A stretch of DNA of 64,000 nucleotides from a virus (lineage: Duplodnaviria; Heunggongvirae; Uroviricota; Caudoviricetes): the IMG/VR virus record IMGVR_UViG_3300017650_000009; one strand, written 5' to 3'. The stretch's first letter is position 1, and every line of letters begins with the position of its first letter. Made by a program: the position numbers and the translations under genes. Below the pieces are notes generated by a model, which was given only the letters and a program-made list of their open reading frames with translations, did not search any database and was not told where the DNA came from. Shown piece after piece: positions 24,994 to 31,538 of this stretch.

Positions 24994-27900
24994 ATGGCTT
25001 ATCCGCTAAATTCTCCAGGCGTTGACGTTAGTGTTACTGACGCCAGCTTCTATGCTACAGCAGGCGAAGGCACTGTTCCTCTGATTATCATTGGTACACA
25101 TGAGTACAAGACTCATCCAAATGGTACAGATATTGCAGTAGGTACGCTTCCTGAAAACGCCAACAAACTATACCTGATCACAAGTCAGCGTGAGTTGGCC
25201 CAGACATTCGGTAACCCGGTTTTCTATCAGAAGGGCGGCACTTCCCGTCATGGCTACGAGCTTAACGAATTTGGTCTACATGCGGCATATTCCTACTTGG
25301 GTATTGCTTCTAAGGCTTTCGTTATTCGTGGCAATATCGATTATTCCCAGCTTTTCCCACGTACAAGTGCACCATTGGGTGAACCTCTACCTGGTACATA
25401 TTGGCTCGATACAAAGAGCTCCGTATGGGGTGTTCATGAAGGTGTAAACAGCACAAGCCCAGCAAGCGCTTGGAAGCCACAGACTCCAATCGTGATCGAC
25501 GAAGATGGTGAAGTTGAACATCGTGTTTTGGGTTCCAAGGAATTCGACGCTGCAACTGACCAGGTAATCACAACTGCTGGTAATCTTGTTTTGAACGGTA
25601 CAACCGTTGCACTTACTGGTGGTGATACACTTCAGACAATCGCATCAAAAATCAACGCCGCTGCAATCACTGGCATAACAGCCAATGCATTCCAGCTCGG
25701 CGGTAAGGCTCGTTTGGTACTTCGCAATTCTGCTACCAACGGTAAGGTTGAAATTGGTCAGAACAGCACAGCATCGGTTCTAGCAGCTTTGGGTCTAGAT
25801 GGCACTGAAGATGCAAGTTATGGTCCTCGTAGTTCAATCGGCTTAGATGGTACATTTGCTATCGTTCTTACCGATAATAATGAAAACGAACTATACCAGA
25901 AGATCCGTGCTGGTGGCATCGAGTTCTCAAATGATCCTCTAGCGATCAGCTATTGGTACAAAGTTGGTTCCGACTTGTGGAAGCAGGCAAGCCCAACTCG
26001 CATCAATGGTGCTAACTTGGGTACAGGTCCAGTTCCGGCACTTGATGGTCTAACTTTGGTTCTTAATGTTACCAATGATGTTGCAAGTGAAGTTTCTGTA
26101 ACATTCTCCGCTGGTGTGACTGTTGATACCGCTGTTGATGAAATTAATGCTGGTCTTCTAGCTGTTGTTGGTGACCCTGCAAAGGATATCACTGGTTCTA
26201 GCTTGGTTGCTGTTTCTCAGAATGGTTCAGTTGTTATTGTCAACAAGACAGGCGGAGACATCCGTTTGGTCAGCGACAGCGCGGCTGCAATTGCTTTGGG
26301 TCTTGAAACTAAATTCGGCGTAATGCTCCGTTACTCCCCACACTACACGATTCCTTCTCGCGTCGATGATCTCGGCCGTAAGCGTGTAAGTGCAGGTGAT
26401 GTTTGGATCAACACCACACAGTTCAACAACGGTGCAAGCTGGGTTGTTAAGTTCTTTAACGGTAACACTGGTCTTTGGAACACTGTTGCGGCTCCGTTGC
26501 TTGCCGATGATATCGCAGCTAATGCGCTATTCGGTGCAAACAAGGCAGTTGGTGTTGTTTATGTTCGTTTCAACACTGAAGGCACACTAGACGCTCCTAT
26601 TGCATCTCATCAGCTACGTCGTTGGAACGGTGCAGTTTGGGAAGCTCTTGTTTATAACTATGGCCCGGTTGCTCCAACAACTGATCCGGAAGAAGGAACC
26701 CTATGGTTCAATGAAAACTTCCGTGTTGACATCATGATCAACGATGGCGATCAGTGGGTTGGTTATCGCAACTATCCAGGAAACATTAATACTAGCCCGA
26801 ACGGCGTTATCCTAGCTGGATCCACTCCAATTGCCCAGCAGAACGGTCAACCTTTGGCTCAGAACGACTTGTGGATCAACACAAGCGATCTTGAGAACTA
26901 TCCAAAGATGTATCGTTATCAGGAACTAACCCGTAGCTGGCAGGCAATCGATAATACAGACCAGACTACTCCGTTTGGTATCGTATTTGCTGATGCTCGT
27001 GCAACTGCTGATGGTCGTCGTAATGGTTCTACTAGTGTAAGTAGCATGTTGGTTTCCAACTTTGTTGATCCTGACGCCCCAGATCCACGAGTCTATCCTG
27101 AAGGTACATTGCTTTTCAACACTCGTTATGCAACTGGTAACGTTAAGGAATGGCGTCCTCAGTATTTCGCTGGTGAATTCGGTGGTACAAACTTCACAAC
27201 TGAAGAGTACAATGTTGGTTACTCCACATTCCCTGCTCTAGTTGATGCAGGTCGTTGGGTCACTGTAAGTGGTAATCAGCCAAACGGCGCTCCGTATATG
27301 GGTCGTAAGGCTCAGCGTGCTATGGTCGTTCGTGCACTTGCTGCAACAATCAATAGCAACGATGATATCCGTGCAGAATCCGTATTCTTTAATCTTATTG
27401 CAGCTCCAGGTTACGTTGAACTTATCGACGAAATGGTTAGCTTGAATACAGATAAGAAGGAAACAGCGTTCGTTATTGGTGACACTCCAATTCGTTTGCA
27501 GCCAAATGCAACATCGTTGCTTACTTGGGCTAAGGAAGAATTGTCCGGTGCAACAACCAATAGTGAAGAAGGCATCTCTACATTTAACCCTTACGTGGGT
27601 CTCTACTACCCATGGGGCTTGGGTTCCAACGTCGATGGTTTCGACGTTATGATTCCACCAAGCACAATGGCACTTCGTACAATTGCTTATTCCGATAGTG
27701 TAAGTTATCCTTGGTTTGCTCCAGCTGGTACAAATCGTGGTCTTGTAACAAACGCAACAAACGTTGGTTACTTGAGTTCAGAAGGTGAATTCCGTTCGGT
27801 TCTTCTAAATGAAGGCCAGCGTGATGTACTTTATACGAACAAGATCAACCCAATTGTTTACTTGCCAAATCGCGGTCTAGTTGTGTATGGTCAGAAGACT

Positions 27901-28266
27901 CGTCACAATGCAGACTCCGCACTTGACAGAATCAATGTTGCGCGTTTGATCAACCACATGCGTTATAACTTGGATATTGTTTCTCGTCCATTCTTGTTCG
28001 AGCCACATAGCTTCCATACACGCGATTCCATCCGTGTAGCATTTGAACGTTACTTGGGCTCCCTAGTAAACTTGAATGCATTGTATGACTTCATCGTAGT
28101 TTGCGATGGAACAAACAATACACCGGATCGTATTGATCGTAATGAGTTGTGGGTAGACGTTGCGATTCAGCCAGTTAAGGCTATTGAGTTCATCTACATT
28201 CCAATTCGTATTGTAAACACTGGCGATAATCTCGCCGAGCTATACAATACAAGCACAACACTTTAA
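24994..28266 (+). CDS. contractile tail sheath protein (T4 gp18-like, with large insertions)
   Basis: N-term SPGVDVSVTD.SFY; C-term LY.NKINPI....G.VVYGQKT......LDRINVARL..., NNT..RIDRNELWVDVAIQPVKAIEFIYI. Confidence 0.95.
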   Translation: MAYPLNSPGVDVSVTDASFYATAGEGTVPLIIIGTHEYKTHPNGTDIAVGTLPENANKLYLITSQRELAQTFGNPVFYQKGGTSRHGYELNEFGLHAAYSYLGIASKAFVIRGNIDYSQLFPRTSAPLGEPLPGTYWLDTKSSVWGVHEGVNSTSPASAWKPQTPIVIDEDGEVEHRVLGSKEFDAATDQVITTAGNLVLNGTTVALTGGDTLQTIASKINAAAITGITANAFQLGGKARLVLRNSATNGKVEIGQNSTASVLAALGLDGTEDASYGPRSSIGLDGTFAIVLTDNNENELYQKIRAGGIEFSNDPLAISYWYKVGSDLWKQASPTRINGANLGTGPVPALDGLTLVLNVTNDVASEVSVTFSAGVTVDTAVDEINAGLLAVVGDPAKDITGSSLVAVSQNGSVVIVNKTGGDIRLVSDSAAAIALGLETKFGVMLRYSPHYTIPSRVDDLGRKRVSAGDVWINTTQFNNGASWVVKFFNGNTGLWNTVAAPLLADDIAANALFGANKAVGVVYVRFNTEGTLDAPIASHQLRRWNGAVWEALVYNYGPVAPTTDPEEGTLWFNENFRVDIMINDGDQWVGYRNYPGNINTSPNGVILAGSTPIAQQNGQPLAQNDLWINTSDLENYPKMYRYQELTRSWQAIDNTDQTTPFGIVFADARATADGRRNGSTSVSSMLVSNFVDPDAPDPRVYPEGTLLFNTRYATGNVKEWRPQYFAGEFGGTNFTTEEYNVGYSTFPALVDAGRWVTVSGNQPNGAPYMGRKAQRAMVVRALAATINSNDDIRAESVFFNLIAAPGYVELIDEMVSLNTDKKETAFVIGDTPIRLQPNATSLLTWAKEELSGATTNSEEGISTFNPYVGLYYPWGLGSNVDGFDVMIPPSTMALRTIAYSDSVSYPWFAPAGTNRGLVTNATNVGYLSSEGEFRSVLLNEGQRDVLYTNKINPIVYLPNRGLVVYGQKTRHNADSALDRINVARLINHMRYNLDIVSRPFLFEPHSFHTRDSIRVAFERYLGSLVNLNALYDFIVVCDGTNNTPDRIDRNELWVDVAIQPVKAIEFIYIPIRIVNTGDNLAELYNTSTTL

Positions 28267-28271
28267 TCAAA

Positions 28272-28298
28272 GGAGCCCGGATTCGTCCGGGCTTTTTT
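28272..28298 (+). terminator. intrinsic terminator after the sheath gene
   Basis: AGCCCGGA-TTCG-TCCGGGCT-TTTTT. Confidence 0.85.
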
Positions 28299-28311
28299 GT
28301 GACTTTTTATC

Positions 28312-28340
28312 TTGCAAAACAAAAATGTCGCTGTTATAAA
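28312..28340 (+). promoter_or_regulatory. sigma70-type promoter for the candidate ncRNA
   Basis: TTGCAA-N17-TATAAA. Confidence 0.65.
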
Positions 28341-28346
28341 GAGGAT

Positions 28347-28717
28347 GTTCTCAACGGAGTAATCCTGAACCCATAACATTATCGAGCGTTGACTGGGTGG
28401 CTTAACTGTAGCGTAAGGGTAGGTGAGGTCTAGTAAACCTCAGTTCGATATGGTATCGAGAATTAACTCGATGTAAGAGACGGCAAAGCGTAAGTTTTGC
28501 GAATTACAGGAACTTCGGTTCCAAAAAGATATTGTTCCAGGAAGGTAATTCCCTGGCGGCCCGGTTACATATGAATACGGGTGTAAGTACGGAGAACCTT
28601 CCAATCGGGGTTCTCAAGAAACGAAAGAGCAGTGAGTGGGGACACTCACAGGGCGAAGACTGGCTCTACAATATCTCAATCCAAACAAACCTAGCTTCTT
28701 CGGGAGCTAGGTTTTTT
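28347..28717 (+). ncRNA. candidate large structured noncoding RNA (~370 nt), family unknown
   Basis: own promoter and terminator, no credible ORF, multiple GNRA/UUCG-capped hairpins, 9-bp long-range helix 28527-28535/28668-28676. Confidence 0.7.
28687..28717 (+). terminator. intrinsic terminator ending the candidate ncRNA
   Basis: AAACCTAGCTTC-TTCG-GGAGCTAGGTTT-TTT. Confidence 0.85.
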
Positions 28718-28790
28718 ATTTCAAAAATATATTGATTTAAGGTTTCCTAAACAATATGTTAGCTAAAGTAAAAACAAACAGGATTAGTAA

Positions 28791-29363
28791 ATGAGTTCAA
28801 CAATTCCAATGAGTTCCATCAAGCTGCGACTCAGCGTTAGTGCTAGTGTTCCAGCAAATATGGTGGTTTTTGGCTTTAGCGTGAAGCAAGCCATTTTGAA
28901 TGAATATCAGAATACTGATCAGGAAGTCCTTACAAGGGCAGCATCAATTCTGCCTGGTGATATTTCGATTGTATCACGTTCGGAAGGAACATCTGTAGTT
29001 GGCATCCCAGTTATGTCATATCGAGTTGAATCGATCGTTGATGTATCCGATGATAACGGTCGTGCACCATCAGTAGAAGAGTTCAATAGTCCGGGATTGA
29101 TTTTCAACTTTGTTGATAAGCGAATTGTTCGTGATATCGAACAAGTTGAACAAACAATCGAACAGCTTCGTTCAGAAATTCTTAATAAAGCAAATGCTGA
29201 ATTGACACGGCTTAATGCGAATAAAAAGGAAAACGACGAAGCGTGGGTTATCGGAGAAATTGACTTCTCTGGGTCCCTTGGTATTACGGATATTGGTAAT
29301 TCTACTGAAATCGTACTCACGCCAAATGTTACACTGGTCAGAAAAATTTATCCACGTTTGTAA
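28791..29363 (+). CDS. hypothetical protein
   Basis: 190-aa ORF, AGGA RBS. Confidence 0.7.
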   Translation: MSSTIPMSSIKLRLSVSASVPANMVVFGFSVKQAILNEYQNTDQEVLTRAASILPGDISIVSRSEGTSVVGIPVMSYRVESIVDVSDDNGRAPSVEEFNSPGLIFNFVDKRIVRDIEQVEQTIEQLRSEILNKANAELTRLNANKKENDEAWVIGEIDFSGSLGITDIGNSTEIVLTPNVTLVRKIYPRL

Positions 29364-29407
29364 TTAAATGTTTGACTTTGTTGTGTTATTCAGTTAGTCT
29401 GAGGAAG

Positions 29408-29677: not shown

Positions 29678-29787
29678 CACATTTTTAATTAAACGGGACA
29701 CCAATGGGTCCGGGGATCGTTAAAAGCATTGAGTGAACCGCAGTGGGCAGACACTGTTTTAAGAAAATACATAAATTAAATTATTTT

Positions 29788-29862
29788 AGACTTGCCCGAA
29801 AGGGTCGAGAGGAATATATTTTCCTCTCGGATCGAAGATTTGCCCCAAAAGGGCCGGATGAG
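29788..29862 (+). promoter_or_regulatory. structured leader (or Y-like RNA) upstream of Ro60
   Basis: two related bulged-C hairpins flanking an 8-bp CGAGAGGA/TCCTCTCG stem, ending just before the AAGGAG RBS. Confidence 0.5.
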
Positions 29863-29876
29863 AAGGAGACTTAAAC

Positions 29877-31538
29877 ATGACAAACCAACGACAGGTAATT
29901 GCGGGGCGGGAAACAGATATGGTTCTGAATAACGCTGGTGGTTATACCTTTAAGGTATCCGATTGGGATCGACTAGATCGATTCCTAGTATTGGGAACCG
30001 AAGGTAACACCTATTACCAATCTGGTGCGGCACTTGCTCGTGAAAACGCGCAACATGTGATCTCCCTACTTCGTACGGATCCTGAGAAGGTGATTGAGCG
30101 TGTCGTTGAGATCAGCCAAGCTGGTCGTGCTCCAAAAAACGATTACGCGCTCTTTGTTCTTGCCCTTGCTGCTTCCGACAGCGCGCCAGCAACACGTCAG
30201 CTGGCTCTCGAGGTCCTACCAAAGGTAGCCCGCACGGGTACTCATCTGTTTAATTTCGTTGCATATGCGGAACAATTCCGTGGCTGGGGCCGCGCGTTTC
30301 GCCGTGCAATTGGAAACTGGTACACATCTCGAGATGTGCATTCACTAGCTTATCAGGCTGTGAAGTACCAGTCGCGTGATGGTTGGTCGAATCGAGATCT
30401 GATACGACTGAGCCACCCAACCGCAAAGGACGATTCGTTCGATGCAGTTTTCCGTTGGATGGTTTCGGGAGTCGATGGTCTAAAGGCCGGCAATCACGTT
30501 CGTGGCCCGAGAGGCTCTGAAGTAAAGACTTCACGCAAGGATGTAAGTGGTGATCTTCCATTGATAATCCAGGCTTTTGAGGAAGCAAAAACAGCAAGCG
30601 AACAGCGTGTGATTGAACTAATCATGTCAAGTAACTTGCCTCGTGAAGCAATTCCAACAAACCTGCTGACATCAGCAAAGGTGTGGGAAGCTTTATTGCA
30701 GAAGATGCCTATGACGGCCCTAGTGCGCAACTTGGCGACTATGACCCGTGTTGGTCTTTTGACTAACGGCTCAAACGCCGAGAAGCAAATTCTGGATAAA
30801 CTTTCTGATGATGATGCAATTCGAAATGCTAGATTGCATCCTATGAATATCCTTATGGCACTGAAGACGTACGACGCAGGTCGTGGTGTAATGGGAACAA
30901 ATTCATGGACTCCTAACCGCAACATCGTAGATGCACTGGATGATGCATTCTACAAGAGTTTCAAACATGTCACACCGACAGGTAAAAAGACTCTGCTTGC
31001 GCTGGACGTATCAGGAAGTATGAACTTCCAGAACATCTCCGGACTCGTAGGAATAACGCCGCGTGTAGCAAGTGCTGCAATGGCTCTAATCACTGCAAAT
31101 GTTGAACCCGATCATACGATGATTGGTTTCACAAGCGGTGGTTGGCAGGCTTCGGGTAGCAATCGCTATCATGGATCTTCGGTTCGCGAAATAGAAATTG
31201 ATCCTAAGGCAAAACTTCTTGATGTGATTAAGCAAGTGAGTGAATTGCCATTCTCCTCAACAGACTGTGCGCTGCCGATGCTTTGGGCATCCGCGCATGG
31301 TGGAGAATACGAAAACTTCTCAGTCTATACGGATAACGAAACTTACTATGGTGCCGTTCATCCATCTACAGCACTGAAGCAGTATCGTCTGGATCATAAT
31401 ATTCCGGCAAAGCTTGCTGTCTTTGGAATGACTGCTACGAAGTTCTCTATTGCTGATCCCGCAGACAGTGGTATGATGGACTTTGCAGGATTCGATAGCG
31501 CAGCACCGGAACTAGCTTCGCAGTTTTTCTCCAAGTAA
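29877..31538 (+). CDS. rsr: Ro60/Rsr TROVE + vWA RNA-binding protein
   Basis: LDRFLVLGTEG.TYY, APKND.ALF.LA, RTGTHLF.F, GWGR..RRA...WY, KYQSRDGW..RDL.RLSHP, MPMTALVRNL..M, MIDAS DVSGSM, TDC..PM, YTDNET. Confidence 0.95.
   Translation: MTNQRQVIAGRETDMVLNNAGGYTFKVSDWDRLDRFLVLGTEGNTYYQSGAALARENAQHVISLLRTDPEKVIERVVEISQAGRAPKNDYALFVLALAASDSAPATRQLALEVLPKVARTGTHLFNFVAYAEQFRGWGRAFRRAIGNWYTSRDVHSLAYQAVKYQSRDGWSNRDLIRLSHPTAKDDSFDAVFRWMVSGVDGLKAGNHVRGPRGSEVKTSRKDVSGDLPLIIQAFEEAKTASEQRVIELIMSSNLPREAIPTNLLTSAKVWEALLQKMPMTALVRNLATMTRVGLLTNGSNAEKQILDKLSDDDAIRNARLHPMNILMALKTYDAGRGVMGTNSWTPNRNIVDALDDAFYKSFKHVTPTGKKTLLALDVSGSMNFQNISGLVGITPRVASAAMALITANVEPDHTMIGFTSGGWQASGSNRYHGSSVREIEIDPKAKLLDVIKQVSELPFSSTDCALPMLWASAHGGEYENFSVYTDNETYYGAVHPSTALKQYRLDHNIPAKLAVFGMTATKFSIADPADSGMMDFAGFDSAAPELASQFFSK

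Follow-up and report, generated by a model that had tools for sequence, protein, structure and literature searches.

It is rare for a large RNA to combine many covarying helices with several pseudoknots, and the known ones are mostly ribozymes, ribonucleoprotein cores, or unexplained "ornate" RNAs. ROOL, GOLLD, and OLE are large and intricate non-coding RNAs (ncRNAs) without an assigned function, of which ROOL and GOLLD, with lengths of 580-800 nt, are associated with phages. The pRNA of phage phi29, of about 170 nt, has its own promoter among the morphogenesis genes and multimerises via defined intermolecular loop pairs. The Y RNAs of the Ro60 protein carry the Ro60 site on a long stem built from their two ends. 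They are short (80-130 nt), a GNCGAA(N)G motif lies near the 5' end beside this terminal stem, and those of bacteria have a tRNA-like module as well (PMC4201824). ROOL and GOLLD have been shown to be homo-oligomeric cages (PMC12286853). Here, we describe RNA1, a structured RNA of about 350 nt encoded between the tail sheath and tail tube genes of a phage belonging to the Caudoviricetes (IMG/VR virus record IMGVR_UViG_3300017650_000009), within a 64,000-nucleotide stretch that we call the window. A first-pass annotation, made from the sequence alone, had placed an undescribed large phage ncRNA at positions 28312-28717 and suggested that it might be a partner of a phage Ro60 protein. Our comparative analysis indicates that this region is very likely a real stand-alone gene for a new structured ncRNA that would act as a folded RNA.

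RNA1 resembles ROOL, GOLLD, and OLE as a large, intricate ncRNA supported by covariation with no assigned function, and it is known from comparative genomics only; like ROOL and GOLLD, it is also associated with phages. It differs from these RNAs in having no sequence or structure match to them (Rfam, E<=10) and in its occurrence in one clade of alphaproteobacterial jumbo phages. RNA1 is also shorter than ROOL and GOLLD and has no conserved self-complementary loop that would suggest homo-oligomeric cages. With the phi29 pRNA, it shares a phage-encoded structured RNA, its own promoter, and a position between structural genes, but there is no homology, nothing ties RNA1 to assembly, and its promoter belongs to the housekeeping class of the host, not to the late one.

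The evidence for a structured RNA comes from an alignment of 12 distinct copies of RNA1, including the one in the window. Blastn with the element from the window matched none of 50,697 phage records, and nhmmer was required because the homologs are too diverged for blastn. The sheath protein marks the window phage as related to Sinorhizobium phage Phosso (74% identical sheath) and, more distantly, to Agrobacterium phage Atu_ph07 (60%). In Phosso and two IMG/VR contigs, nhmmer located an RNA1 homolog 3' of the sheath gene. The covariance model built from these three sequences and the window scores the four at 313-379 bits. Homologs of gene X, which lies downstream of RNA1, led to further contigs, and all of those that include the upstream DNA carry RNA1 (99.7-351.6 bits). 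Altogether there are 11 homologs besides the window, in Phosso, the two IMG/VR contigs, and eight more metagenomic contigs, with scores of 99.7-378.9 bits overall. The model covers 28339-28690 of the window (352 nt, 312.8 bits) and 346-379 nt in the homologs. Pairwise identity among the 12 copies ranges from 44 to 93%, and the window copy, with 46-52% identity to the others, is among the most diverged.

The + strand of the window element folds with a minimum free energy (MFE) z-score of -4.5 against dinucleotide shuffles, and none of 100 shuffles folds as well. RNAalifold predicted 59 pairs from the 12 sequences, 46 of them compensatory. For the 63 pairs of our model, 92.3% of the alignment cells pair, compared with 70.3% in shuffled alignments (0/500 shuffles reach the observed value) and 37-40% when the partner column is slid; the corresponding covariation scores are 0.70, 0.25, and 0.10-0.13. 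Both sides change in 50 of the 63 pairs, so that the covariation among homologs, by which the first-pass annotation proposed to check the fold, is found across the 12 sequences. Hairpin regions folded singly give the same hairpin with differing stem sequences in all or nearly all 12 sequences. Pairing amounts to 96.0% of the cells if the + strand is the RNA and to 83.5% if the - strand is, and G.U cells (103) far exceed A.C cells (4), which identifies the + strand as the RNA. No open reading frame (ORF) is conserved on either strand across the homologs, every + frame of which contains 3-12 stops, and contig L025 has no + ORF of at least 25 codons. The 67-codon frame of the window, described earlier as weak and lacking a ribosome-binding site, is interrupted in all homologs and gave no Pfam match.

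The fold model contains 13 well-supported helices, one tentative helix, and tertiary pairings (Table 1). The long-range and tertiary helices were tested by comparing cognate with non-cognate duplex energies and by an unbiased column-pair scan, which recovered them. The 5' domain comprises hairpins H1, Hx, H4, H6, H7, and H8 and is knotted by helices b/b' and c/c' and by the Hx-H4 kissing loop. Within it, hairpin H1 is lengthened in relatives by compensating pairs (GGAG/CUCC, GGAAC/GUUCC, and GGGAA/UUCCC). The tentative helix a/a' pairs in the window, with weak comparative support, because its register varies by subgroup with several mismatches and its cognate energy is -5.3 versus -4.7 kcal/mol. 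Helix b/b' covaries at its sole variable position (U-A in nine sequences, C-G in two, and A-U in one) and, together with c/c', makes an H-type pseudoknot. Helix c/c' has 9 bp in relatives, six of its seven modelled pairs change on both sides, and 97.6% of its cells pair, with -11.2 kcal/mol for cognate and -5.2 kcal/mol for non-cognate duplexes. The kissing loop between hairpins Hx and H4 switches among UAGAA/UUCUA, UGGAA/UUCCA, GGACA/UGUCC, and CGUA/UACG, with columns covarying as U-A/C-G/G-C and as U-A/A-U (-4.6 versus -2.2 kcal/mol).

The 3' domain is a five-way junction formed by helix P5 and the branches Ha, Hb, Hc, and Hd/He. P5 is present with 7-13 bp and unrelated sequences in all 12 copies (-13.2 versus -7.7 kcal/mol). 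The junction between H7 and H8 pairs with the loop of Ha in a pseudoknot that covaries (A-U in seven and G-C in five sequences at one position, U-A in nine and A-U in two at another; -8.9 versus -5.0 kcal/mol), and this pairing is predicted to lock the 3' domain to the 5' domain. The eight hairpins listed by the first-pass annotation are all found where it had placed them and are kept with different sequences in the homologs, apart from H8 in L026. Its three long-range helices fared differently: the 9-bp P5 was recovered in 12/12 sequences, UCAAC/GUUGA, our helix a/a', has weak support only, and CUGUA/UACAG turned out to be unconserved and was discarded. We also rejected UCCUG/CAGGR, a proposal of RNAalifold that is invariant or wobble-only, is broken in four sequences, and has cognate and non-cognate energies of -5.4 and -5.8 kcal/mol. 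The c/c' pseudoknot, the CCNA/UN'GG helix, the Hx-H4 kissing loop, and the junction-Ha loop pseudoknot were not in the earlier list. Its count of seven GTAA is correct; of these GUAA, only those in H1 and H7 form GNRA tetraloops.

The window RNA1 is framed by a promoter and two intrinsic terminators, all of which had been recognised in the first-pass annotation and are present. The terminator of the sheath gene is predicted to insulate the RNA1 gene from late sheath transcription. The promoter would place the start site at about 28346-28348. Homologous promoters occur in the 11 relatives, where an A-rich stretch and GGTTGA(A/C)-N17-CTATAT/CTATAA stand directly upstream of RNA1. A promoter scan lists TTGAAT-17-TATATT in Phosso and TTGACA-17-TATATT in L022 (11/12), both ending 1-4 nt before the covariance-model match; the promoter of the window itself is absent from the scan because its -10 hexamer ends in A. 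The consensus of alphaproteobacterial housekeeping promoters is CTTGAC-N17-CTATAT, and its resemblance to the RNA1 promoters suggests transcription by the host polymerase, independent of the late structural genes. A stable hairpin lies within about 45 nt 3' of the model match in every homolog. The terminator stem sequences are unrelated among the homologs, and canonical U-tract terminators follow RNA1 only in the window, L022, and L028.

Table 1. Features of the RNA1 locus. Positions refer to the window unless a contig is named.
Feature	Position	Strand	Remarks
Tail sheath gene	24994-28266	+	Phage_sheath_1C match
Intrinsic terminator of tail sheath gene	28268-28299	+	14-pair stem with 7 G-C pairs, then T run
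RNA1 promoter, TTGCAA-N17-TATAAA	28312-28340	+	Sigma-70-type; from sequence and homologous positions in relatives
RNA1, predicted ncRNA of about 370 nt	28347-28717	+	Bounded by promoter and terminator; ends inferred
Tentative helix a/a'	UCAAC 28351-55 with GUUGA 28388-92	+	Encloses H1
Hairpin H1, GGA-GUAA-UCC	28356-65	+	GNRA loop; forms in 12/12
Near-invariant strand UGAACCCAUAAC	28366-77	+	Contains CCCA 28370-73
Helix b/b' (CCNA/UN'GG, 4 bp)	CCCA 28370-73 with UGGG 28394-97	+	C-G, C-G, N-N', A-U in 12/12
Pseudoknot helix c/c'	UAUCGA 28380-85 with UCGAUA 28445-50	+	Encloses b', Hx, and H4
Hairpin Hx	28400-12 (GCU 28400-02 / AGC 28410-12)	+	
Hx-H4 kissing loop	ACUG 28405-08 with UAGU 28431-34	+	Five columns pair in 11-12/12
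Invariant CGUAAGGRUA between Hx and H4	28412-21	+	
Hairpin H4	UGAGGU 28424-29 / ACCUCA 28437-42	+	
Hairpin H6, conserved loop GAAUUAAC	28454-73	+	98% of cells pair; 4/5 pairs compensatory
Hairpin H7, GCAAAGC-GUAA-GUUUUGC	28483-500	+	100% of cells pair; 7/8 pairs compensatory
Junction-Ha loop pseudoknot (7 bp)	H7/H8 junction GAAUUAC 28501-07 with Ha loop GUAAUUC 28545-51	+	Pairs in 11-12/12
Hairpin H8, GGAAC-UUCG-GUUCC	28509-22	+	11/12 with differing stem sequences; absent in L026
Helix P5, closing the 3' multi-helix domain	AGAUAUUGU 28527-35 with ACAAUAUCU 28668-76	+	9 bp in window
67-codon TTG ORF, judged no gene	28532-28735	+	No ribosome-binding site, no Pfam match, unconserved
Ha	28537-56	+	100% of cells pair
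Hb	28559-82	+	98% of cells pair
Hc	28592-615	+	11/11 pairs compensatory
Hd	AGAGC 28626-30 / GCUCU 28663-67	+	
He	28632-49	+	GNRA loop in 11/12
RNA1 intrinsic terminator	28687-28717	+	12-bp stem with UUCG loop (28687-28714), then U run
Gene X, 190 aa	28791-29363	+	SIMPL-like fold; 75 nt downstream of RNA1
Gene Y, 101 aa	29372-29677	+	Small conserved protein
Ro60 gene, intact	29877-31538	+	TROVE and vWA_Ro60
RNA2 in relatives	Phosso L010:9986-10445; L023 4547-4997; L031 1893-2348; L002 10216-10662		Also in L025, L026, L027, L029, L030
Homing-endonuclease-type inserts in relatives	L026 1860-3506; L028 2605-4281; L030 2242-3885; L023 8404-9102		

As far as the searched collections show, the RNA1 family appears to be confined to Phosso-like jumbo phages, a small clade from soil. 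Pattern scans for the invariant motifs in IMG/VR, the JGI metagenome contigs, and the GTDB genome contigs returned only the two known IMG/VR contigs and chance matches; three contigs with such matches (L015, L032, and L033) showed no further similarity and no model match. Phosso is the cultured representative, with Sinorhizobium meliloti as its host, and phages of this group have genomes of roughly 470 kb. Strains nearly identical to the window phage (at least 95%, mostly at least 99%, over 27800-29400) occur in runs X5, X7, X9, and X10, which derive from a soil or isolate-type run, bioreactor sludge, lake water, and another sample. X5, the one run guessed to be RNA, contains a 31.6-kb contig spanning the region and is probably DNA. 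Six substitutions separate these strains within the RNA1 region. Only three fall in helices, and all three are wobble-compatible (28353 A>G in the tentative a/a', and 28596 A>G and 28598 C>T in Hc).

RNA1 lies in an island between the sheath gene and the tail tube genes, which come after Ro60. The first-pass annotation had placed it between the sheath and Ro60 genes; the same island holds all three, and Ro60 starts 1.16 kb downstream of RNA1 on the same strand, past the two ORFs of genes X and Y. Gene X is found at every RNA1 locus. It has no Pfam or PHROG match, and its AlphaFold model (predicted local distance difference test, pLDDT, 86) matched the Campylobacter SIMPL-like protein 7c50 (E 5e-6) and Brucella BP26 (4hvz) in Foldseek. 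Neither X nor RNA1 was found in Atu_ph07, the search for X having been made without a positive control. We set gene X aside as a functional clue because the SIMPL/BP26 fold has no known link to RNA and the co-occurrence of X and RNA1 amounts to one clade-level event at most. Gene Y encodes about 100 residues (in Atu_ph07, L011:9818-10138) with the motif RWNNRxPGNGRFEG and a conserved Cys and His, and had no match in Pfam, PHROGs, or Atlas. It closely precedes Ro60, and its conservation extends to Atu_ph07, in which it overlaps the Ro60 start. The Atu_ph07 gene L011:10131-11786 (ASV44713.1), annotated as "Clp protease-like protein", is itself Ro60 (TROVE 1.9e-36; vWA_Ro60 6.3e-42), and an unannotated stretch of 650 nt separates it from the tube gene. 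Genes of homing-endonuclease type (NUMOD3-containing, 547-558 aa; GIY-YIG) are inserted at varying places in the sheath-tube island of several relatives, which makes this island a hot spot of mobile insertion.

Nine relatives carry a second conserved structured element, RNA2, of about 450 nt between RNA1 and X. Its invariant blocks are TAAATA, GAGCCGA..GGGTTATCT, GGTCCAAGTCG, CACTTGCTCT, and AAGATGAGGACC. A GGUCC..GUC / GAU..GGACC helix forms over a long range, a GAAA hairpin covaries, indel lengths are not multiples of three, and the element has a strong terminator and a promoter-like TAAATA motif of its own. RNA2 had no Rfam match, and in Phosso it is currently annotated as an 81-aa hypothetical protein (XYS97552.1). 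The window, L022/L001, L028, and the Atu_ph07 locus lack RNA2. The RNA1 terminator of the window shares its stem sequence and the following ATATTG motif with the end of RNA2 in Phosso and L030 (aligned over 28676-28760 of the window). This homology implies that the window carries a deletion reaching from the 3' tail of RNA1 through to the RNA2 terminator, which also explains why it lacks the GAUCGA(A/C) tail present in 10 of the 12 homologs. The three lineages with RNA1 only indicate that RNA1 is a module retained on its own. RNA2, not RNA1, is missing together with Ro60 in L022/L001 and L028, although X and Y lie between RNA2 and Ro60, and the window keeps Ro60 without RNA2. This joint absence of two non-adjacent elements may hint at a link between RNA2 and Ro60 and at a functional connection inside the island; the tree gives weak support for separate losses.

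Several points weigh against RNA1 as a stand-alone gene acting as a folded RNA. All RNA1 homologs come from one phage clade, so that co-occurrence statistics count few independent events. The hairpin following RNA1 has no U tract in most relatives, and the next terminator listed by the scanner on the + strand downstream of RNA1 in Phosso is the end of RNA2. RNA1 may there be the 5' half of a longer transcript, of about 800 nt, that also includes RNA2. The helices a/a', b/b', and c/c' cross one another and may not all form simultaneously. RNA1 as a transcript, and its ends, are predicted from sequence signals, and its putative function from its architecture.

Could RNA1 have diverged from one of the known families of large RNAs (RNase P RNA, tmRNA, group I introns, or ROOL/GOLLD/OLE/HEARO) so far that the models missed it? 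Its length and pseudoknot content are within the range of RNase P RNA and transfer-messenger RNA (tmRNA), and a related phage, AP-J-162, was reported with a tmRNA and a "misc RNA" (PMC11242549). RNA1 shares with RNase P RNA, tmRNA, and group I introns not only a similar length but also several long-range or pseudoknot pairings and invariant junction nucleotides. However, cmscan with the 4227 families of Rfam 15 was blank at gathering score for the 64-kb window and for five relatives, and at E<=10 it found only terminator look-alikes at both ends of 28200-28850 and none in the RNA1 body. RNA1 has neither the terminal P1-type helix nor the P4-type conserved strands (CR-I/CR-V) of RNase P RNA, whose bacterial and archaeal models gave no match at E<=10, and the candidate long-range pairing UCCUG/CAGGR fails the cognate test. 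For tmRNA, there is no tRNA-like acceptor/T-arm end, no tag ORF, and no Rfam match at E<=10, and ARAGORN found no tRNA, tmRNA, or tRNA-like element in the window. A group I intron is opposed by the lack of an Rfam match and by the intergenic position of RNA1 without exons, immediately preceded by a promoter and followed by a terminator. The models of ROOL, GOLLD, OLE, HEARO, and raiA matched neither the window (E<=10) nor the five relatives (gathering score), and no Rfam riboswitch aptamer or T-box matched RNA1. Hence we regard a missed member of these families as very improbable. The cmscan comparison proposed by the first-pass annotation (ROOL, GOLLD, HEARO, YrlA, and group I) leaves its claim of novelty standing, the blank being weak evidence as regards Y RNAs such as YrlA, and its remark that the motifs of RNase P, tmRNA, and tRNA are absent agrees with our results. 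The undescribed large phage ncRNA that it proposed is upheld by the promoter, the 3' hairpin or terminator, the lack of a conserved ORF, the covariation in 12 sequences, and the blank Rfam and ARAGORN searches. Literature searches turned up no description of RNA1. By these comparisons, RNA1 is a new RNA class, outside every curated family. RNA1 might instead be a giant Y-RNA-like partner that tethers Ro60 to the host polynucleotide phosphorylase or another effector. It shares with Y RNAs (YrlA/YrlB and Yrn1; Yrl1/Yrl2 of phiLo) the form of an ncRNA gene that has strand and island in common with a phage Ro60 gene, which here is intact with TROVE and vWA domains. Ro60 is present at 9/12 RNA1 loci (the L031 contig ends before the slot), GGCGAAG at 28651-57 of the window fits GNCGAAN0-1G, and the GAUCGA(A/C) tail just 3' of P5 recurs among homologs. 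Nevertheless, L022/L001 and L028 keep RNA1, X, and Y with no Ro60 between Y and the tube gene, and Atu_ph07 has Y and Ro60 but no detectable RNA1, either across its 490-kb genome or, when the search filters were disabled, in the syntenic 4 kb. Next to Ro60 in the unrelated phages Catera, Beuffert, and BONAISHI, the covariance model gave no match. RNA1 is about three times the size of a Y RNA, lies two genes away from Ro60, and has no terminal helix in its consensus; a GGAU/AUCC terminal pairing in the MFE fold of the window is unconserved and lies at or before the probable start site. No GNCGAAN0-1G occurs in the 5' part of RNA1, the GGCGAAG of the window is in the 3' part and unconserved, and the GAUCGA(A/C) tail does not fit the Y motif and is missing in the window. 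A tRNA-like module with T and D arms is also lacking (ARAGORN), and the loop of H8 is a UUCG tetraloop and not a T loop. A separate Y-like candidate, GGAUCGAA plus hairpins, is found directly in the Ro60 leader. The comparative data thus show no apparent dependence of RNA1 on the nearby Ro60 gene, its partner need not be Ro60, and the partnership suggested by the first-pass annotation now seems unlikely.

The Ro60 leader (window 29700-29876; L010:11493-11635) contains a hairpin, (U)GGAUCGAA, and then UUGCCCCAAAAGGGCCGGAUGAGAAGGAG. The window, Phosso, L021, and L023 conserve this arrangement, which has diverged in others and is better placed than RNA1 as a candidate for a Y-RNA-like or autoregulatory element. 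At gathering score, the Ro60 loci of Mycobacterium phage Catera, Streptomyces phage Beuffert, and Vibrio phage BONAISHI (L034, L036, and L035) yielded no Y RNA with Rfam 15, and only tRNAs in Beuffert. YrlA-like RNAs have been published for mycobacteriophages (PMC4201824), so a blank Rfam search beside known phage Ro60 genes is weak evidence on Y RNAs. Unannotated gaps of 480 nt in Catera and 760 nt in BONAISHI lie upstream of Ro60.

What RNA1 does might be approached from its architecture. Host RNA polymerase with the housekeeping sigma factor would transcribe RNA1 independently of the late sheath and tube genes, yielding a discrete RNA that would act in trans as a folded molecule. A rigid knotted frame would hold the near-invariant unpaired stretches (UCCUGAACCNAUAA, GACUNGG, CGUAAGGRUA, the GAAUUAAC loop, GUGUUAAGUAG, and GAAAUGAAUGG), which might form a binding (or active) site for a protein, an RNA, or a small ligand. 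A partner-binding scaffold or decoy within a phage island of RNA metabolism is, in our tentative judgment, the likeliest single mode of action. The same invariant nucleotides could instead belong to a ribozyme, with the knotted core serving as a self-cleavage or RNA-processing site. They are concentrated in the junction strands of the 5' pseudoknot; the size of RNA1 and its several covarying pseudoknot and tertiary pairings are nearer to those of large ribozymes than to typical protein-sponge small RNAs, and genes for tRNAs and RNA repair are numerous in published relatives of the phage group (PMC11242549, PMC7824862). Yet no Rfam ribozyme family is similar at E<=10 and no obvious cleavage-site or substrate helix is seen, while the missing flanking exons and the own promoter indicate that RNA1 is not an intron; we consider a ribozyme quite unlikely. 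It is improbable that RNA1 is a cis-acting leader, a very large riboswitch or attenuator governing read-through into X, Y, and Ro60. Such a role would fit its orientation along with these genes, the 75 nt to X in the window, its terminator-ended form, like that of transcriptional riboswitches, and the apparent mutual exclusion of a/a' and b/b', which could be a switch. The RNA2 gene, with its own promoter-like motif and terminator, separates RNA1 from X in nine relatives, however, and a conserved TATTGTA/ATATTGA motif after the terminator may be the promoter of X itself. Moreover, the terminator stems are unrelated among homologs with no conserved anti-terminator alternative seen, and 13 helices with four tertiary pairings are far beyond any known aptamer; the Rfam riboswitch and T-box comparison was blank. 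A protein-coding gene or a signal at the DNA level, such as an origin or a pac site, might be considered because of the 67-codon ORF and because the region is intergenic and rich in inverted repeats. The probability of either is negligible: the ORF is unconserved and lacks a ribosome-binding site and a Pfam match, stops occur in all frames of the homologs, and the strand-specific excess of G.U together with the compensatory changes are signatures at the RNA level.

In summary, a scaffold or decoy remains our preferred reading of RNA1, and a broader role may be entertained with considerable doubt: RNA1 might be the RNA part of a new phage machine, a ribozyme or ribonucleoprotein core handling host or phage RNA, such as tRNA or defence-related RNA, together with RNA2 in most relatives. 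RNA1 offers a well-determined map of secondary and tertiary pairings, a clear promoter and terminator, and a cultured representative in Phosso. Separating it from the obvious Ro60/Y-RNA assumption avoids misdirected experiments. Together with Ro60 and small conserved proteins, the two structured RNAs mark the sheath-tube island of these phages as an RNA-centred accessory module.

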